From an uncultured Pelagibacteraceae bacterium (GTDB taxonomy: Bacteria > Pseudomonadota > Alphaproteobacteria > Pelagibacterales > Pelagibacteraceae), in NCBI GenBank assembly GCA_902514755.1, contig CABXRY010000002.1:8608-72607 (forward strand): 64,000 bases of DNA, read 5' to 3'. A program made the translations under genes and the position numbers. The stretch's first letter is position 1. Every line of letters begins with the position of its first letter. Shown piece by piece: positions 56,400 through 64,000 of the stretch. The notes under the pieces are model-generated. The model was not told where the DNA came from and did not search any database. It saw nothing but the letters and a program-made list of their open reading frames with translations.

Positions 56400-57452
56400 A
56401 TGGCAAAAATTAAAATAAAAAGAGAAAGAGTTAAATTTGCATCAGATAATGTTGCAGGTGCTTGTCCAGAAGTATTAGATGCAATTATTAAAGCTAATGA
56501 AGGAGACAGCACTCCTTATGGAAATGATCAAATTTCAACTGAACTTCAAGATAAATTTTCTGAAATTTTTGAAAGAGAGGTTATAGTTTTTCCAACAGCT
56601 TCAGGAACGGCTGCTAATGCTTTAGCTTTATCAACAATGACACCATCATTTGGTAATATTTATTGTCATAAGATGTCCCATATAAACACTGATGAATGTG
56701 GTGCTCCAGAATTCTACACTGGTGGCGGAAAACTTGTTACTCTTCAGGGTGTTAAAGGAAAAATAACTGCTGAAGAACTAGATGAAGCGATTACTGGAAA
56801 AGGAATTGTACACCATACTCAACCCTCATCTGTTAGCATTACACAAGTTTGTGAAACAGGAGAAGTTTATCAATTAGATGAAATTAAAAAAATATCAGAT
56901 GTTGCTCATAATCATAATTTAAACATGCATATGGATGGTGCTAGATTTGCCAATGCATTAGTGTCACTTGATGTAACACCAGCTGAGATGACTTGGAAGT
57001 CAGGTATTGATGTATTATCATTTGGAGCAACCAAAAATGGTTGCTTAGCTGCAGAAGCTATAATTTTTTTTAAAAAAGATTTAGTAGGTAATGTTGCTTT
57101 TTTAATGAAAAGAGCAGGGCATTTATTATCTAAAATGCGTTTTGTCTCTGCTCAGTTAGATGCTTATATCTCAAATGATGTGTGGCTTAAAAATGCAAGA
57201 CATGCAAATAAAATGGGAAAAAAATTAAGTGAAGGATTAAATAATCATTCCGATATAAATCTATCTTATCCAACTGAAGCCAATGAGATTTTTGCTACAT
57301 TTCCTAGAAATAAAATTGATCATTTAAATTCTGAAGGTTATACAATTAATGAAGATGAATGGGATGGTAAAGCTGTAAGATTAGTTACTGCTTGGAATAC
57401 TAAAGATAATGATGTTGATGAATTTTTAAGTATACTTAATAAGACTAACTAG
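56400..57452 (+). CDS. ltaE: Low-specificity L-threonine aldolase
   Basis: FASDN, SGTAAN, HINTDECGAPEF, HMDGARFANA, SFGATKNG PLP lysine, SKMRF. Confidence 0.88.
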   Translation: MAKIKIKRERVKFASDNVAGACPEVLDAIIKANEGDSTPYGNDQISTELQDKFSEIFEREVIVFPTASGTAANALALSTMTPSFGNIYCHKMSHINTDECGAPEFYTGGGKLVTLQGVKGKITAEELDEAITGKGIVHHTQPSSVSITQVCETGEVYQLDEIKKISDVAHNHNLNMHMDGARFANALVSLDVTPAEMTWKSGIDVLSFGATKNGCLAAEAIIFFKKDLVGNVAFLMKRAGHLLSKMRFVSAQLDAYISNDVWLKNARHANKMGKKLSEGLNNHSDINLSYPTEANEIFATFPRNKIDHLNSEGYTINEDEWDGKAVRLVTAWNTKDNDVDEFLSILNKTN

Positions 57453-57672
57453 GGTTCTTTTTTAGATATTCAATATAATCTACCACATCATTAAATTTTT
57501 CATCAGGAATATCTTTGTAACTTGCATTAAAGTTATCTTTCACGCATATAGCAACATGAGCATAGGGGTTTCTTCCTTTGGGGTGATTTGGATGTTCTGG
57601 TAGTTGTCCCCCCAAATAATTGCCAGCTTCCTGAATAATTTTCCAGAGTTTACTTGCGTTATCTTTATTCAT
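57445..57672 (-). CDS. Small hypothetical protein; apparent integration target of the adjacent element
   Basis: 75-aa ORF (HPNHPKGRNPYAH); its first 20 codons recur at 63528-63588. Confidence 0.8.
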   Translation of the reverse strand: MNKDNASKLWKIIQEAGNYLGGQLPEHPNHPKGRNPYAHVAICVKDNFNASYKDIPDEKFNDVVDYIEYLKKNPS

Positions 57673-57685
57673 ACAACCTAAATTC

Positions 57686-57722
57686 TTGTTTTATCTAAAT
57701 CTGGCATAGTCTGTGGCATAGT
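57686..57722. repeat. 37-bp arm repeat, left copy (contains tandem TGGCATAGT with 12-bp period)
   Basis: ttgttttatctaaatctggcatagtctgtggcatagt; 33/37 identical to 63375-63411. Confidence 0.9.
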
Positions 57723-57839
57723 ATTTTTTAAAATCCTATTAATAATCACCAGACCATGTAAAGACATCTGTATCAAGTTTTATATTATTGAATTCAAGGT
57801 CTTGGCCTAAATGGTTACTTGATCTAGAATAGATTAAAA

Positions 57840-58562
57840 ATGACACTTAAAGTTAAAGGCACTAATGAGGGGTTTAAAACAGAGTCTTTAATTGAGGAAT
57901 ATCTTAATAATAAAAAGATTGTTGATCTTAAAACATCTAATCTAAAAAAATTTATTTATTTCATATGCATAGAAAATCATATTGAAATTAATAAAGAAAC
58001 TACAATTAAAGTTAAAAATTTTGATAAAAAAAATTTAAAAATAATAGGATTACCTAAAACTGATAAAGTATTTAAAATATCAAATAAAGAATTTAGAATT
58101 AGTATCAAAACAGGCAAAGGTGGTGCTTTTCATCAAGAGCCTGAAGAGACATTTATTAAGTTTTTAAAGGCCAAGACAAATATAGATGAAAATAAAATCT
58201 CATTTCTTAGTAAGTTTCTTAGAAGTGATGAAATTAAAATAAAAAATAGTAATCTTGCAAAATTCTTTGATAAGAATAGATCAATTCTGATTAATAGAGT
58301 TTTTTCTGGTAGATTTAACGAACCTGATGTTCATTATTATTTTTTTTGTCCTTTAATTAATAAATATGACACAAAGGAAATAAGAATAAAGAAAATTGAA
58401 AAAGGAAAATATATAAATAAAATTTCATTAATTGAGTTTATAAATAACAATAAATCTAACGGTGAATGTCCAGTCGGTCGCTTAACTTTTCAAGCTTATG
58501 GAAGATTAAGGGGCACAAGCGTTCAATTTAAGTGGGGTACGTGTTATAATGACATCAAATAG
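57840..58562 (+). CDS. Putative PD-(D/E)xK restriction endonuclease, MspI/HinP1I-like (1)
   Basis: GFKTE, PKTD, ISIK, KNRSILINRVFSGR, GRLTFQ...VQFKW parallel recalled HinP1I motifs; convergent with the C5 methyltransferases. Confidence 0.65.
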   Translation: MTLKVKGTNEGFKTESLIEEYLNNKKIVDLKTSNLKKFIYFICIENHIEINKETTIKVKNFDKKNLKIIGLPKTDKVFKISNKEFRISIKTGKGGAFHQEPEETFIKFLKAKTNIDENKISFLSKFLRSDEIKIKNSNLAKFFDKNRSILINRVFSGRFNEPDVHYYFFCPLINKYDTKEIRIKKIEKGKYINKISLIEFINNNKSNGECPVGRLTFQAYGRLRGTSVQFKWGTCYNDIK

Positions 58563-59331
58563 AGCCTTAGATGGTTTTAAAAATGAAGATGAATTTGTAA
58601 TAAAACTTAATTCAAATAAAGAACATCCATTTTGGAAAACAATTAATTTAACGGATAATAAAAAAATATATTTTGTAAGAGTAGTAGGAAGCAAACTTTC
58701 AAAACTTACTAATAAAAAAATACCATGTAAAGCAGATGTTTTTGTAAGTGAAATTGATTTAGATATAAATGAATTAAAGAGTAATAAATATCTTATTAAA
58801 GAAAATCAAAAATTAAAATTTATCAATAAATTACCTCAAACTGGTATCTCTATAAAAATGAATAAAACTAATTATCAAATTGATAAGTGTTCTATGGATA
58901 AATTTGTGAAACGTTTTGATGATAAATATTTATTTGTTGGTGCTACAACCTACAACAAAAACATAAATGAATTAAAATATAATCATACTGTTTTAGAGCG
59001 CACAGAAACAACATGGAAAGAGTTTGGAAATTATTTTAAAAGTGAGATTTTAAAAAAAGTAAACATAGATACCGATTTTAATGAAGAACACGCAAATATT
59101 TTGCAAAAAATTAAAACAGAATCAAATAAAAAAATAAAATCCATGGCATTAGATAGTCCAAAAATATTAGACTCTTTATATAAAGGCTCAGATGAATTTA
59201 ATGATCCTTATTGTGCAACGTGGTTATTAATAGATAACAAACTAACTAAAGAAATACCAAAAGATTTAAAAGTAACAAAAGGAAGTAGTAATAAAGGACG
59301 GAATCCTCAGGTTGAGTTTAAACCTGCTTAA
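58549..59331 (+). CDS. Putative PD-(D/E)xK restriction endonuclease, MspI/HinP1I-like (2)
   Basis: ALDGFKNE, KADV, ISIK, YQIDK, QVEFK (HinP1I as recalled: AKDGFKNE, KSD, QVK, NQIDK, LQFK). Confidence 0.65.
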   Translation: MTSNRALDGFKNEDEFVIKLNSNKEHPFWKTINLTDNKKIYFVRVVGSKLSKLTNKKIPCKADVFVSEIDLDINELKSNKYLIKENQKLKFINKLPQTGISIKMNKTNYQIDKCSMDKFVKRFDDKYLFVGATTYNKNINELKYNHTVLERTETTWKEFGNYFKSEILKKVNIDTDFNEEHANILQKIKTESNKKIKSMALDSPKILDSLYKGSDEFNDPYCATWLLIDNKLTKEIPKDLKVTKGSSNKGRNPQVEFKPA

Positions 59332-60298
59332 TTTTTTTTTTTATTTGTTGAACTAAGGAGTTAATTACGGGCACACTAACAGAATTCCCAATTTGTTTTA
59401 AAGCTTCAGTATAATTATTTGTAAGTTTAAAACTTTTAGGAAATCCTTGGATTAAAAGACATTCTTCTAAAGTATAAAATCTATTTTGATTCACTAGATA
59501 AGGAACATTATTTCCACCTGTTCCCATTTTAGTAGTCAAACAAGGACTTATGTTGTCAAATCTAAAATGACATCTAGATTTTCTAACTTCATTAGCAACT
59601 AGATAATTAAGATTTTTTATTTTATTGTAACTTTGGTGTTTTCTTAAGTGTTTATTTATATAACCTTTGGATAATTTTGAAATTCTTCTAATTTTTTTTG
59701 GTTTAATTTTAATGATATCGTTCAACGTTTTTTTAAGCTTCTGATTTGTAGGAAATTTGAAATTAATGCTTTGATCTCTAAAACCAATTATAAATACTCT
59801 TTCCCTATTTTGAGGTACATTAAAATTAGTTGAGTTTAAAATTTTCCAAAAGACATTATATCCTAAATTTTCTCTTCTTGATTTAATTATTTTACCATTT
59901 AATTTTTTTGATAAAATTTCTAAAATTTTTTTAAAAGTTTCCCCTTTATCGTGATTAACCAAACCTTTTACATTTTCTAAAATAAAAATTTTCGGTTTTT
60001 TTTCCTTTAAAATTCTAACAATATCAAAGAATAAAGTTCCTCTTGTATCATCAAAACCTCTTCTCTTTCCCGCAATACTAAACGGTTGGCATGGAAATCC
60101 AGCACAAAGAATATCATGATTTGGTATTTTTTTTGGAGATAGTTTTTTTATATCTACAAGTGGATATTCTTTAAAATTTTTATAATAAGTCTCACATGCA
60201 TATTGGTTATTATCCGCACTAAATACACATTTATAGTTAAATTTTTCAAATGCTAATCTAAACCCACCTATACCAGAGAATAAATCTATAAATTTCAA
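59318..60298 (-). CDS. DNA (cytosine-5) methyltransferase, classical RM type
   Basis: DLFSGIGG, GFPCQPFS, ENVKGL, PQNRERVF, KQIGNSVSV; TTG start overlapping the upstream stop. Confidence 0.95.
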   Translation of the reverse strand: MKFIDLFSGIGGFRLAFEKFNYKCVFSADNNQYACETYYKNFKEYPLVDIKKLSPKKIPNHDILCAGFPCQPFSIAGKRRGFDDTRGTLFFDIVRILKEKKPKIFILENVKGLVNHDKGETFKKILEILSKKLNGKIIKSRRENLGYNVFWKILNSTNFNVPQNRERVFIIGFRDQSINFKFPTNQKLKKTLNDIIKIKPKKIRRISKLSKGYINKHLRKHQSYNKIKNLNYLVANEVRKSRCHFRFDNISPCLTTKMGTGGNNVPYLVNQNRFYTLEECLLIQGFPKSFKLTNNYTEALKQIGNSVSVPVINSLVQQIKKKIKQV

Positions 60299-61227
60299 TT
60301 GAATAATTCTAACTGTTTTTTAATGTTTGTTTTTTTTCCAATAAAACTAATTATATATTTAATTACTTGAACGGTAAAACCATTCCCTATCATTTTATAT
60401 CTTGTTGTATTGCTAAAATCAGCTGTATAATTATCTGGCAAACCTTGAAGCCTTTCACATTCTAAAGGTGTTAATTTTCTTATTTTGTTATTTATGTATA
60501 TTTTGGGTGTATCAGATCTAGCTAATAATGTAGGAGACTTTCCTCTAATATCATATACTCTTCTCTGTCTTTCGTTATCTTTTAGTAATTCTCTGGGAAT
60601 TAAGTAAATCTTATTTATTCCATGTTTTAATTTATTAGAATTTTTTAATTTTTTTATTTTATTTGGATTTAAATCAAAAAAAAATTTCTCATCAGGTTTT
60701 TTTTCTAAATAGTCTTTAATATTTCTATTGTACTTATCTAAATTTACATTTTCAAAATCTATATTTGACCAATATACTCTTGGCCTATATTGACCTGAAA
60801 AATACATTGAATTTAATTCAATTCCCTTAACACCAATTTCTCTATCCATTAAATTAGACCATTTATTCTTAACATTTTCTAGAAGAAAATATTTTGGCTT
60901 TAATTTTTTCTTTATCTTAACAAACTGAAAAAATAAGGAAGATCTAACTCCTTTAATACCATCACCTCTGTAAGCATTACTTAAATCCTGACAAGGGCTT
61001 CCACCAATAAGTAAATCAATTCTAGGAAGTTTATTTAAATTTATATTTTCAACAGAACCCAAATTTATGTCTTTTGGGTATTTCTTACTAAGTAATCTTA
61101 AGCAATTTTTATCTATTTCAGAGTAAAAATATCTATTAATTTCGATATTTTTACTTTTTTTTAATGCTAATTTTGCACAACCTATACCATCAAATAAGCT
61201 TAAAACATTTAATTTTATTTTTTTCAT
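60295..61227 (-). CDS. DNA (cytosine-5) methyltransferase of a second, distinct subtype
   Basis: SLFDGIG, SEID, GGSPCQDLS, LENV, QYRPRVYWSNI, RKLTPLECERLQG, KMIGNG. Confidence 0.93.
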   Translation of the reverse strand: MKKIKLNVLSLFDGIGCAKLALKKSKNIEINRYFYSEIDKNCLRLLSKKYPKDINLGSVENINLNKLPRIDLLIGGSPCQDLSNAYRGDGIKGVRSSLFFQFVKIKKKLKPKYFLLENVKNKWSNLMDREIGVKGIELNSMYFSGQYRPRVYWSNIDFENVNLDKYNRNIKDYLEKKPDEKFFFDLNPNKIKKLKNSNKLKHGINKIYLIPRELLKDNERQRRVYDIRGKSPTLLARSDTPKIYINNKIRKLTPLECERLQGLPDNYTADFSNTTRYKMIGNGFTVQVIKYIISFIGKKTNIKKQLELFN

Positions 61228-61257
61228 TTTGAGTCTATATAATATATATCAGAAACA

Positions 61258-61716
61258 ATGCGAGATTTCATTGAGTCAAACTATCTTATTTTTATTTCTT
61301 CAGATGGAAGAAGAGAGGGTTATGAAATTTTTAAAGAAAGAATTAATAATAATTTATGGCCAATATACAAAAAAACTCCACAATTAATTAATATTGAAAA
61401 AGATAAAAAAATTCTTTTTTATATAGCTGGCACAAATACATTATGTCAAAATTTTGTGGCAAGCACTTCTATAAAAGAAATAATTGATTTAAAATCTACT
61501 TCATCTGATCCAAATCAAGAATTTAGGCAAGTTTTATTTAATGTTAGATTTAATGAAATTAATTATTTTCAAAAACCAGTAAATATTAAAAATCATATAA
61601 ACAACCTGAGTTTCATTGAAGAAGAAAAAAGAAAGTATTATGGCCTTTATTTGCAAGGTGGTGTTTGTAAAATTAATGAACAAACATATGAATATATAAT
61701 AAACAAATCCTCATAA
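61258..61716 (+). CDS. Stand-alone EVE (PUA-like) domain protein
   Basis: WPIYKKTPQLINIEKDKKILFYIAG...FVAS...KPVNIK...LSFI...YGLYLQGGVCKINEQTYEYI matches the EVE/UPF0310 pattern as I recall it. Confidence 0.7.
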   Translation: MRDFIESNYLIFISSDGRREGYEIFKERINNNLWPIYKKTPQLINIEKDKKILFYIAGTNTLCQNFVASTSIKEIIDLKSTSSDPNQEFRQVLFNVRFNEINYFQKPVNIKNHINNLSFIEEEKRKYYGLYLQGGVCKINEQTYEYIINKSS

Positions 61717-61807
61717 GTTAAAAATTATTTGTTGAGATATTAATATCAACATAATTAAAACAATTTTGTAGCAAATTTTAAACAAACACATTTGATTTAT
61801 TAGAAAA

Positions 61808-62098
61808 ATGAAAAACCCAGAGATTGTTGAGATTTCAAACAAAATGTCTCCAGACATAAAATTTTCATCAGATTCAGTAAGATTGTTAGCTCCAAAATTA
61901 CTAAATTACGCGGAAAATAAGAGAGATTTTCTTTTATTATTTGAATTATCTAAGTTTCAAGCAACAAGAAATCAGATTGTATCAATTATTAAAAAAGACA
62001 CTAATATTCATAAAAAATTAAAAGAACTAATCAAAAGAAAAACAAATAAATCAATTATCAAAAAAATTAAAGATTTAGAAGAAAGAATAAATGGTTAA
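61808..62098 (+). CDS. Hypothetical protein
   Basis: 96-aa basic ORF that overlaps the next gene. Confidence 0.55.
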   Translation: MKNPEIVEISNKMSPDIKFSSDSVRLLAPKLLNYAENKRDFLLLFELSKFQATRNQIVSIIKKDTNIHKKLKELIKRKTNKSIIKKIKDLEERING

Positions 62099-62282
62099 TT
62101 ACTTATTCTATTTGTGCGTTGATATTTTGGTGTGGATTGCAGAATTAACTGGGACCACATATGAACTAGTTAACATTGTAATTTTTGTAATTGGTTATCC
62201 TTTATTTGTGATTTTATTACTATTTGTAATTTATTTTCAGAATAAAAAAATTAATAGATTAGAAAATAAATTTGATTTATGA
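62091..62282 (+). CDS. Small membrane protein
   Basis: CVDILVWIAELTGTTYELVNIVIFVIGYPL plus a hydrophobic segment. Confidence 0.6.
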   Translation: MVNYLFYLCVDILVWIAELTGTTYELVNIVIFVIGYPLFVILLLFVIYFQNKKINRLENKFDL

Positions 62283-62442
62283 ATTCTTAATTGTAATTTT
62301 AATTAAAAAGTTTCTTGGCTTTATAAATTTAATTTTAGAAATTTTTCTTTTAGGTTATTTGCCACTTTGGTTTTATAAAAAAATAAATCATTTTAAAAAC
62401 ATAATTAAGTCAAAAATTAAACATCAAAGGATGTTTAATTAA
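62272..62442 (+). CDS. Putative 56-aa small membrane protein (TTG start)
   Basis: Hand-translated MIYEFLIVILIKKFLGFINLILEIFLLGYLPLWFYKKINHFKNIIKSKIKHQRMFN*; overlaps the upstream stop. Confidence 0.35.
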   Translation: MIYEFLIVILIKKFLGFINLILEIFLLGYLPLWFYKKINHFKNIIKSKIKHQRMFN

Positions 62443-62598
62443 TTTAATGCATTGGATTTCAATCCTTTTCTATCGTATTTCGCTGTTTTTATTATCTCCC
62501 TTGTTGCGTAGTTCGAGTAAGCAGAAAAGGATTGAGTCTATTACCAACTATAAGCTTTTAACCCTCAAAAAATCAATCAACAATAGGAGTTCCAATAT

Positions 62599-62784
62599 AT
62601 GGAAATAGGCCATGTCTGTAAGTACTGTCACGTGAGTGCTTACGTTGCGTATGATAACTGCGATCCCGTTTATAAACAAACTTTCAAATTCGAAATATTA
62701 CCAGGTGAACATAACAGTTTAGTCTGGGATAAAATCATAAAAATATTTAAGAAAAATGGATACAAAGTTGAGCTCAAATCATGA
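62599..62784 (+). CDS. Small hypothetical protein with CxxC
   Basis: 61 aa, CKYCH, strong aggag SD, ATGA coupling to the next gene. Confidence 0.6.
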   Translation: MEIGHVCKYCHVSAYVAYDNCDPVYKQTFKFEILPGEHNSLVWDKIIKIFKKNGYKVELKS

Positions 62785-63356
62785 AAAGAGTTTTACTAAT
62801 TATTTTATTACATCTATCTCTTTTTTTTCTTGTATTCGCGTACCAAGCACAAGCCGAAGAAGAAAATGAATGGCACGTAAATGACTTTGGTAACTTCGTA
62901 GTTGCTGCAGTATCAGGTGAAGTTATTCATGGTGATAAACTAAGGTTTTTTATAAAAAAAGAAGATTGTTCTAAAGTTGCAATGATGTTTTCATTTTCGA
63001 CTAGTTTAAAAAGAAATGACATTAAAGAACTACAAGATAAAAAATTACCAATACGCATTAATGATTGGGATATAATAAGAGGAGCAAGAGTAGTATATGT
63101 TCATCCTTTTGAATTTATGACAATCGTGATGATGCAAACTCAAGGATTTCATGAAATTAAAGAGTTTATTGGTTCTTTAAGTTCAATGTATACATTTGAA
63201 AAAATGTTTAGTATCCAATTAGTTAAACAACCTCATTATGATCCTGAAGATCACTTTGACATTTTGCGTAATCATTGGAAATTAGATCGTATAGAAGAGA
63301 ATATAGAAAAAGCACAAGCTATGTGTCTTGGACCAATCGAGATAGAAACAACTTAA
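62781..63356 (+). CDS. Exported hypothetical protein
   Basis: Signal peptide ending AQA; two cysteines. Confidence 0.7.
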   Translation: MKRVLLIILLHLSLFFLVFAYQAQAEEENEWHVNDFGNFVVAAVSGEVIHGDKLRFFIKKEDCSKVAMMFSFSTSLKRNDIKELQDKKLPIRINDWDIIRGARVVYVHPFEFMTIVMMQTQGFHEIKEFIGSLSSMYTFEKMFSIQLVKQPHYDPEDHFDILRNHWKLDRIEENIEKAQAMCLGPIEIETT

Positions 63357-63374
63357 TTGAAGAAATATCAAAAT

Positions 63375-63411
63375 TTGATTTATCTAAATTTGGCATAGTC
63401 TATGGCCTAGT
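63375..63411. repeat. 37-bp arm repeat, right copy
   Basis: ttgatttatctaaatttggcatagtctatggcctagt, same orientation as 57686-57722. Confidence 0.9.
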
Positions 63412-63477
63412 TTATTGCTTGAATTGATGAGTCTTAATGCGAATTATTTTCAATCAAATTTTAATTATCTGCATAAC

Positions 63478-63510
63478 TAGTGCGAAGTAGTGTGAGGTAG
63501 TGTGAAGTAG
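63478..63510. repeat. Three tandem 10-bp repeats (tagtgygarg)
   Basis: tagtgcgaag tagtgtgagg tagtgtgaag tag, ending 17 nt before the junction. Confidence 0.9.
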
Positions 63511-63527
63511 GTTGTCTCACTAGCACT

Positions 63528-63588
63528 CCAAATAATCGCCAGCTTCCTGTATAATTTGCCACAGTTTACTTGCATTTTCTTTATTCAT
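63528..63588 (-). pseudogene. Displaced 5' fragment of the 57445-57672 gene
   Basis: Reads MNKENASKLWQIIQEAGDYL then EC*; the intact copy reads MNKDNASKLWKIIQEAGNYL. Confidence 0.88.
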
Positions 63589-63622
63589 AATTTTAAAAAT
63601 TTTGTATATTTGATTAATAAAT

Positions 63623-63988
63623 ATGAGAAAAATATTATCTTCAATAATTATTTTTTTAAGTATTAATACAGTTACATTAGGTAAGGGAACTACTTTTACA
63701 AATGAGATATTTAAAAAATCTCAAGAAGATGGAAAAACAGTAGTTATACACTCATGGAACAAAACTTGTGTAACTTGCGCAGAGCAAGTAAAGATTTTAA
63801 ACCAAGCCAAAAAGGACTTTAAAGATACGATATTCTTGAGTTTTGAACAATCTAAAGATAAAAAAATTGCAAAATTTTTGAGCATTGATTATTGGACAAC
63901 AATAGTTGTCTATAAGAATAACAAAGAAATATCACGCACTATTGGTCAGACGAATAAAGAAGAGATTTATTCTCAAATTAAACCTTAA
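63623..63988 (+). CDS. Exported thioredoxin-fold protein
   Basis: Signal peptide, CVTC, TIVVYKNNKEISR. Confidence 0.8.
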   Translation: MRKILSSIIIFLSINTVTLGKGTTFTNEIFKKSQEDGKTVVIHSWNKTCVTCAEQVKILNQAKKDFKDTIFLSFEQSKDKKIAKFLSIDYWTTIVVYKNNKEISRTIGQTNKEEIYSQIKP

Positions 63989-64000
63989 TAAGATTTAAAA

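Follow-up and report, generated by a model that had tools for sequence, protein, structure and literature searches.

Mobile elements that insert in a protein-coding gene and carry a replacement for the end that they displace include e14 and phage 21, both of which enter icd, and elements that are flanked by attachment (att) sites but lack recombination genes include the cis-mobilizable elements (CIMEs) of Streptococcus, which undergo accretion with integrative and conjugative elements (ICEs), stand in tandem, and can be excised by the integrase of an autonomous element. Here we describe an interval of 5.9 kb (57612–63588) in a stretch of 64,000 nucleotides from an uncultured Pelagibacteraceae bacterium (the window), and conclude that it is probably a non-autonomous cassette belonging to a family of tyrosine-integrase elements of the Pelagibacteraceae. 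An earlier reading of the letters of the window (the original prediction) had called the interval a non-autonomous or integrase-deleted element, and this is supported by empty sites, by cassettes with varied contents, and by integrase-bearing relatives with the same sites. The interval is CIME-like in that both of its att sites match the attP of an autonomous relative (L150) and in that recombination genes are absent; unlike the situation with CIMEs, the putative helper is a replicative element of 9 kb rather than a conjugative one, and mobilization in trans by a matching integrase is something that we infer. No bacterium is more abundant in the surface ocean than SAR11, to which the host belongs, and the ways in which its tiny genomes gain and swap genes are still being worked out.

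In the streamlined ocean host Prochlorococcus, tycheposons are tyrosine-integrase elements with primase/helicase modules; their repeated insertion yields tandem blocks split by partial copies of the target, and integrase-less remnants carry cargo that includes defence genes (10.1101/2020.12.28.424599). The elements described here likewise form tandem insertions between partial target copies, and their complete members encode an AEP primase and DUF5906. Unlike tycheposons, they reside in SAR11 and use the 5′ end of a protein gene (or, in a sister array, the 5′ half of a tRNA-Leu gene) rather than partial tRNA copies; the likeness is one of architecture and replication module. Closer in host are the virion-encapsidated integrative mobile elements (VEIMEs), small elements, reported to be integrated in Pelagibacter, that encode a tyrosine integrase and a primase-helicase (PMC9618062, PMC11876622); with such integrase-borne elements published, the original prediction's picture of a lineage with almost no mobile elements no longer holds. 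Among the autonomous relatives described below, two resemble VEIMEs in being ~9-kb IMG/VR contigs with an integrase and a primase-helicase. Encapsidation, concatemers and packaging genes are features of VEIMEs; no terminase or capsid genes were recognized in the relatives here, and a satellite nature of the latter is suggested by the two IMG/VR contigs at most. The available text of the two VEIME reports describes neither this attachment site nor integrase-less cassettes. Finally, elements with dusA-associated integrases target the 5′ end of a protein gene, for which they bring a substitute (PMC4482086). Compared with these and with the icd elements, the elements at our locus have another target gene and a much larger integrase, the initial codons of which serve as an attP arm, and the likeness is one of targeting mode. 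Unlike integrons, none of the arrays has a recombinase gene beside it, and the junctions consist of a directly repeated gene start rather than attC hairpins.

The kind of element is accordingly a known one (tycheposon- or satellite-like, with CIME-like derivatives and dusA-type 5′-end targeting), but the target gene and the integrase clade appear to be new, and the literature that we searched, coverage of which was incomplete, holds no description of this protein-gene hotspot, of a large integrase with attP-arm codons, or of the size of the cassette pool. What the locus offers is a landing site defined to the nucleotide, arm and core sub-sites, a matching integrase, and a cassette pool that numbers at least several dozen, includes many restriction–modification (R-M) systems, and has these sites in common. 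This makes the mobilization of SAR11 defence genes by an integrase in trans directly testable, and yields patterns with which to search metagenomes for such cassettes.

The ends of the element and its target gene

The direct repeat of a gene start from which the original prediction set out was borne out, and could be extended to 62 nt (57612–57673 and 63528–63589; 56 of 62 positions identical, spacing 5,916 bp), the six mismatches being scattered over the whole repeat. The left copy belongs to an intact, conserved gene of 75 codons (57445–57672, minus strand), the integration target, whose first 20 codons and upstream region fall within the left end of the element. The right copy (63528–63589, minus strand) is the displaced original 5′ end of the gene. 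It reads MNKENASKLWQIIQEAGDYLEC and then meets two stop codons, leaving a stub of 22 codons that is divergent to a thioredoxin-like gene (63623–63988), much as the short copy facing that gene had been described, and the intergenic region on its upstream side is native.

Within the repeat lies a 22-bp core, CAGGAAGCTGGCnATTATTTGG on the gene strand (57612–57633 and 63528–63549), which occurs exactly twice in the window as against no occurrence expected from shuffles. (The string ccaaataat, noted previously at the breakpoint, is indeed shared but is not the full extent of the common core.) The left copy (minus strand) is the likely crossover region inside the intact gene, being the sole stretch common to all forms of attP (in the integrase-bearing elements L084, L116 and L150) and to all chromosomal copies. 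Next to it are the first 13 codons of the gene and a leader of ~17 nt (57634–57689, minus strand), which together with the adjoining arm module would replace the displaced original gene start; at the same position genome G295 has an N-terminus of the element type. The paired sites predicted near each end of the interval resolve into a 33-nt inner module (57690–57722 and 63379–63411) made up of two ACTA(T/G)GCCA units 12 nt apart and TTTAGATAAA, again with exactly two occurrences in the window and none expected. On the left, this P′-arm module (minus strand; two ACTATGCCA repeats 12 nt apart, then TTTAGATAAA) agrees at all 35 nt of the arm pair and adjoining motif with the P′ arm of L150/L099, an integrase-bearing element. 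On the right, the P-arm module (minus strand; ACTAGGCCA, ACTATGCCA and TTTAGATAAA) equals the first codons of the integrase in autonomous elements, where L150 has ACTAGGCCA and ACTAGACCA within MTEKLGHELDQVKIKQ.

Between the P arm and the right core come two further segments. A cassette-specific block (63412–63477, minus strand) stands in place of the integrase promoter and start of the autonomous elements and is kept among integrase-less cassettes with unrelated cargo, and a run of tandem 10-mers with a linker to the core (63476–63527, minus strand) accounts for the 10-bp repeats reported beside the right junction (63478–63510; period 10, 3.3 copies). Repeats of the same class follow every remnant of the target gene, and may be binding sites, putatively for the integrase or a directionality factor. 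G+C content is 0.20–0.26 inside the element versus about 0.30–0.35 in its flanks. In agreement with the reported lack of an integrase or transposase open reading frame (ORF), a Pfam search found no recombinase in the interval. An Rfam search of 57300–64000 returned nothing up to an E value of 1. The element of the window has both att sites complete, with every sub-site kept, and neither integrase nor replication genes.

Homologues of the target gene are present in 46 of the 61 relatives searched. The gene product belongs to no Pfam, NCBIfam or PHROG family; in a protein atlas it lies near hypothetical proteins of 75 amino acids, one cluster of which is half viral, and the sole named lead is a weak one, to an ORF6C domain (atlas score 0.91).

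Empty sites, remnants and stacked cassettes

Comparison across relatives brought to light both the empty alleles and the alleles with different cargo between the same repeats that the original prediction led us to look for. The target gene is intact on the fetched locus of 26 relatives; the region upstream of it is of the element type in 11 of these and native (that is, empty) in at least 13, among them the complete genome G013, so that the interval is not a conserved, colinear one that lacks empty sites. N-terminal remnants of the gene number three in tandem in G026, one in G033 and three in SAG-MED17, with many others besides, and there are two in nBUS_29 and one in nBUS_30, both of them closed genomes. 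Every remnant stops at one identical nucleotide, right after ...GATTATTTGG, and is followed in the sense of the gene by a TAG linker, three or four 10-mers, the conserved block, a pair of short direct repeats, and the motif GAGATAAA. The gene 5′ end that comes after each cassette is in turn preceded by a further repeat pair and GAGATAAA motif. The pattern of the block, AATAAATCGCnnnnAGACTCATCA (the copy in the window differs by one base), was found in 27 stretches from ~24 genome assemblies, with a label of Pelagibacterales or Alphaproteobacteria in every case except one, and wherever the flank in question belongs to the locus the block follows a remnant at a distance of ~80 nt.

From genomes and metagenome contigs we delimited 28 complete cassettes, 227–4,028 bp in length and with unrelated cargo, in tandem arrays of up to three; the 5.9-kb cassette of the window exceeds them all in size. 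Scanning metagenomes for the arm type of the window returned 42 contigs, ~35 of which are att modules at the hotspot with varied cargo, and two of these carry an integrase, the sole recombinase matches on the cargo side. (The arm pair of the window by itself has 10 matches in IMG/VR, all of them coding repeats in unrelated phages, which we attribute to chance.) The smallest insert, of 227 bp (L129:2631–2918; L003 of G007), is devoid of cargo and consists of a stub, 10-mers, the block and an arm pair, with the intact gene directly behind them. Its probable origin is a deletion that joined the two 33-nt arm modules. A joint 57722->63373 on a metagenome contig matches this cargo-less form, weakly, its short side being 26 letters long.

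Recognizable families among the 71 cargo ORFs surveyed include components of type I, II, III and IV R-M systems, together with a PLD-type nuclease domain, DUF4379, dehydrogenases, a trypsin-like peptidase, HIT and DUF1330; many of the 71 are without a family. The claim that the element carries defence cargo therefore stands to the extent that defence is frequent, but such cargo is not exclusive. Most cargo ORFs are co-oriented with the stub, and it is our speculation that the promoter of the stub could read through into them. The same DUF1330 gene sits beside the arm block in three cassettes (L031, L052 and L068; 814, 1,256 and 1,697 bp) whose second genes differ, which suggests gene gain, gene loss or fusion among cassettes.

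Short cassettes, mostly co-oriented with the stub and stacked in arrays, are also what an integron-like platform might look like, on which the single ~325-amino acid tyrosine recombinase of the host would insert and excise cassettes; indeed, nearly all genomes of the genus hold exactly one gene for such a recombinase. That gene is, however, distant from the array and is present in empty-site genomes too, there is no attC-like inverted repeat, and the att sub-sites are those of elements with a 570-amino acid integrase of their own, all of which renders this explanation highly improbable. Among relatives G001–G060, members of the genus of the window encode the one ~325-amino acid protein, with a weak PF00589 score (E ~1e-20), and members of the sister family encode two Xer-like proteins (E ~1e-45); the genus of the window may use a single-recombinase Xer system.

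We give next to no credence to the idea that a single-cell assembly was mis-joined at the repeat. Although the assembly is fragmented (47 contigs, 70% complete), Logan contigs from runs of four independent metagenome studies cover the cargo of the window at ≥99% identity and lie on the left inner junction, one of them spanning 57693–57956 without a difference, and the same architecture is found in complete or closed genomes. These observations contradict the one technical explanation that the original prediction had allowed for.

Integrase-bearing relatives and replacement of the gene start

Integrase-bearing relatives link the att sites of the window to a recombinase. L084 (9,070 bp), an IMG/VR contig with the core sequence, has in order an arm pair, a mini-ORF that ends in the core, the 10-mers, and an ORF of 568–581 amino acids (depending on the start codon), and it also encodes a RusA-like protein and a primase of the AEP type that has a helicase-like DUF5906 domain. 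L116 (9,003 bp, also from IMG/VR) has the same layout and an integrase that is 62% identical, and the 22-bp core is all that it shares with the chromosome. L150, from a metagenome, is the same element as L099, an 8,864-bp contig of G292, and encodes a tyrosine recombinase of 570 amino acids. Replication genes, P′ arm, core, 10-mers and integrase are contiguous in this order in L084, L116, L150 and L099. The attP of L150 aligns with the two junctions of the window joined together: the P′ arm is identical, and on the integrase side there are ~4 differences from the 22-bp core through the 10-mers and ~3 from just after the core through the 10-mers. As the original prediction implied, arm repeats and integrase are linked, in that L150/L099 bears the identical ACTATGCCA pair adjoining its recombinase gene; its P-arm repeats (ACTAGGCCA...) sit in the first codons of the integrase.

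Arm repeats differ according to integrase variant. They are ACTCGAA in L084, G289 and G295, ACTATATC in L116, ACTATGCC / ACTAGGCC in L150, and ACTAGAAC in L117, and in four of the five cassettes examined the arm pairs at the two ends agree. (L117, G289 and G295 likewise encode a tyrosine recombinase.) Such repeats resemble specificity determinants in their behaviour, and are what would be expected of the arm-type sites of a heterobivalent integrase.

As judged from its modelled fold, the 570-amino acid protein is a tyrosine recombinase. The best PDB matches of an AlphaFold model (mean pLDDT 76) are exclusively tyrosine recombinases, with probability 1.0 (XerA, XerH, Tn1549 Int, IntI and lambda Int); a sequence profile gave marginal matches only against the PDB (E 0.02–0.04), and the fold comparison was decisive. 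Consistent with this assignment, R386, K413, R509 (KxxR motif), H533 and Y543 are invariant in 11 of 11 members of the family, and the integrase of L084 falls just under the cut-off for PF00589 and matches the phrog_1 integrase with an E value of 8e-23. In the N-terminal part of the model, strands in 42–93 and a subsequent helix would, by our reading of the secondary structure, suit an arm-binding domain. Close homologues (66–78% identity) are encoded by 3 of 401 genomes of the family, and distant ones (26–35%) by nine other genomes, in elements at other sites. A relative of 565 amino acids in nBUS_29 belongs to another element, 650 kb away from the hotspot. Beside the integrase is a conserved gene of 94 codons whose product has no match in profile searches of PDB sequences, Pfam, NCBIfam and PHROGs; it had looked like a candidate excisionase or AlpA-type helix-turn-helix protein, an idea to which those searches lent no support.

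Replacement of the gene start, which the original prediction had proposed by analogy with known elements, is apparent in G295, where a 21-kb element (L098:14024 to L104:1487; G295:C1:469023-490486) is bounded at both ends. In order, it comprises a stub with the chromosomal-type sequence LNKENASK..., the integrase, ~19 kb of cargo, the replication module, a ACTCGAAAC arm pair, and the intact target gene, starting MSPENSRK, on the side of the threonine aldolase gene. The N-terminus in the free element L084 is MSPEKSQK, of the same type as MSPENSRK. The chromosomal-type stub and the element-type start of the intact gene show that the element supplies the start of the target gene. They would also confine the crossover to the stretch between codon 8 and the position at which remnants diverge, a range that narrows to the 22-bp core once L116, which shares only the core, is added. 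The ~19 kb of cargo includes ORFs that by look resemble subunits of cytochrome bd oxidase, and upstream of the stub in G295 is a further cassette, with ACTAGATAC-type arms. In G289, an integrated autonomous element (L097:14353 to L102:3600; G289:C1) starts with a canonical stub and an integrase. Its opposite end, beyond the primase and a 195-codon gene, is not canonical, and neither an arm pair nor an intact target gene was found there.

These comparisons are consistent with the following mechanism. Members of the family would integrate site-specifically at the 22-bp core, which covers codons 14–21 of the 75-codon gene. The free form has an attP of ~270 bp. In the sense of the gene, it opens with two 9-nt arm repeats and the promoter-like motif GAGATAAAACAAG; these are followed by a start codon and a copy of the gene start 20 codons long, by the core, by 10-nt repeats (three or four of them), and by another set of arm repeats, which in autonomous elements doubles as the first codons of the 560–580-amino acid integrase. 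Recombination, with a putative crossover in the core and the arm repeats and 10-mers acting as putative protein-binding sites, places the gene start and promoter of the element ahead of the body of the gene; what remains of the old start is a stub, closed by a TAG immediately beyond the core. Stacked cassettes would then result from insertion occurring repeatedly.

The 62-nt repeat might instead have served as homology for RecA, with circular DNA that contains a copy of the gene start inserting and leaving in the manner of Campbell. SAR11 recombines often, the mismatches are scattered along the repeat, the 5′ end supplied in the window is of the chromosomal type, and deletion between 33-nt repeats is exemplified by the 227-bp form (L129, and the joint 57722->63373). 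Homologous recombination of this kind is nevertheless very unlikely to account for the family: all remnants end at one nucleotide and continue into the same conserved, non-chromosomal modules, the identity that L116 shares is confined to the 22-bp core, a dedicated integrase adjoins the same site, and arm repeats co-vary with the integrase variant.

Cargo, a second landing site and mobility

Returning to integrase-mediated insertion of the cassette of the window, its cargo bears on whether such cassettes still move. Two ORFs (57840–59331, plus strand; 240 and 260 amino acids), overlapping by 14 nt, match the N- and C-terminal parts of a single PADLOC type II restriction-enzyme model of 527 positions (PDLC03402; E 1e-13 and 8e-16). 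They are followed by two genes for C5 cytosine DNA methyltransferases (59318–61227, minus strand; 326 and 310 amino acids; PF00145 E 4e-93 and 4e-46; PADLOC MTase_II). Because the two-ORF layout of the nuclease is kept in G350, a frameshift is ruled out, and with two C5 methylases alongside, the pair looks like a two-subunit enzyme for an asymmetric site.

G350 is the one other genome among 400 of the family with this R-M part (79% identical), and there the block resides in a cassette of the same design at a tRNA-Leu(UAA) gene (L160:1300-6100, L169:2768-2853; G350:C1). The array contains two 5′ halves of the tRNA gene, cut in the anticodon loop, each followed by 10-mers, the block, a ACTAGAAGC arm pair and GAGATAAA, and an intact tRNA-Leu gene stands at the end of the array. 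By its layout, the G350 element supplies the 5′ half of the tRNA together with a promoter, an uncommon arrangement where integrases target tRNA genes.

The right-hand part of the cassette (61750–63370, 1.6 kb) has a different distribution, occurring at 70–89% DNA identity in many Pelagibacter genomes without the R-M part. Since the two parts occur apart, the cassette looks composite. No att module was seen on the fetched loci that carry the right 1.6-kb part (their context was not examined in detail), and a vestigial internal att site marking a fusion was not found in the cassette, the best local alignment being of low complexity only.

Several observations weigh against the account given here of the family and its mobile cassettes. 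Neither PF00589 nor the element-type integrase has a match anywhere in the assembly (974 kb in 47 contigs, 70% complete), so that a helper in the cell is hypothetical. Circularity of the 9-kb integrase contigs has not been shown, and the cassette-specific block has no match in IMG/VR. The first 13 codons of the cassette are of the chromosomal type and not of the L150 type, which points to a later homologous exchange within the repeat, and in G033 the arm repeats at the two ends are unlike each other (the remaining one of the five cassettes compared). Finally, neither a circular cassette nor, among the listed joints of metagenome contigs, one representing precise excision was seen; these contigs are short unitigs and uninformative on rare forms.

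The absence of a helper and of excision products leaves room for a fixed relic, namely a scar that was inserted by an integrase and is now immobile, its cargo spreading only vertically or by homologous recombination of the conserved flanks and its att sub-sites persisting since the event was recent. We regard this as possible though somewhat doubtful. Autonomous elements are rare, as the count of close integrase homologues indicates, and identical arrays across contigs look vertically inherited (L124/L154; L122/L149/L151). However, a cassette-specific block of ~65–190 nt that is absent from autonomous elements has been kept across unrelated cargo in ~24 genomes, arm pairs are intact and matched at both ends, and homologous R-M cargo sits at tRNA-Leu in G350. 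The conserved block, the intact matched arms and the presence of homologous cargo at two sites thus speak for continued mobility of the non-autonomous cassettes. A bolder proposal, which we consider unlikely, is that integrase-less cassettes, far from having decayed, are self-standing miniature mobile units with a conserved arm module of ~190 nt, moved in trans between at least two sites (the 75-codon gene and tRNA-Leu) and with the promoter of the stub driving their co-oriented cargo. Were it correct, cassettes would outnumber integrase-bearing helpers by ~20:1, and an array would amount to an integron-like platform for gene capture and expression, with the recombinase provided by transient satellites.

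The remainder of the cassette encodes, on the plus strand, an EVE-like protein of 152 amino acids (61258–61716; PF01878 E 3e-4, under the family cut-off, and a weak NCBIfam match), and then a group of small ORFs (96, 63, 56 and 61 amino acids) together with a 191-amino acid protein that has a hydrophobic, signal-like N-terminus (61808–63356), none of which has a family match. Several genomes with the right 1.6-kb part lack 61800–62447. Lastly, a remnant at a contig edge in another relative (L034:316-375; G040:C8) is preceded by a region of the element type, is located on the other strand at a distance of 70 kb from the intact gene, and loses homology earlier than the others (...GAAGCAGGC); it may represent a rearrangement or an illegitimate junction.

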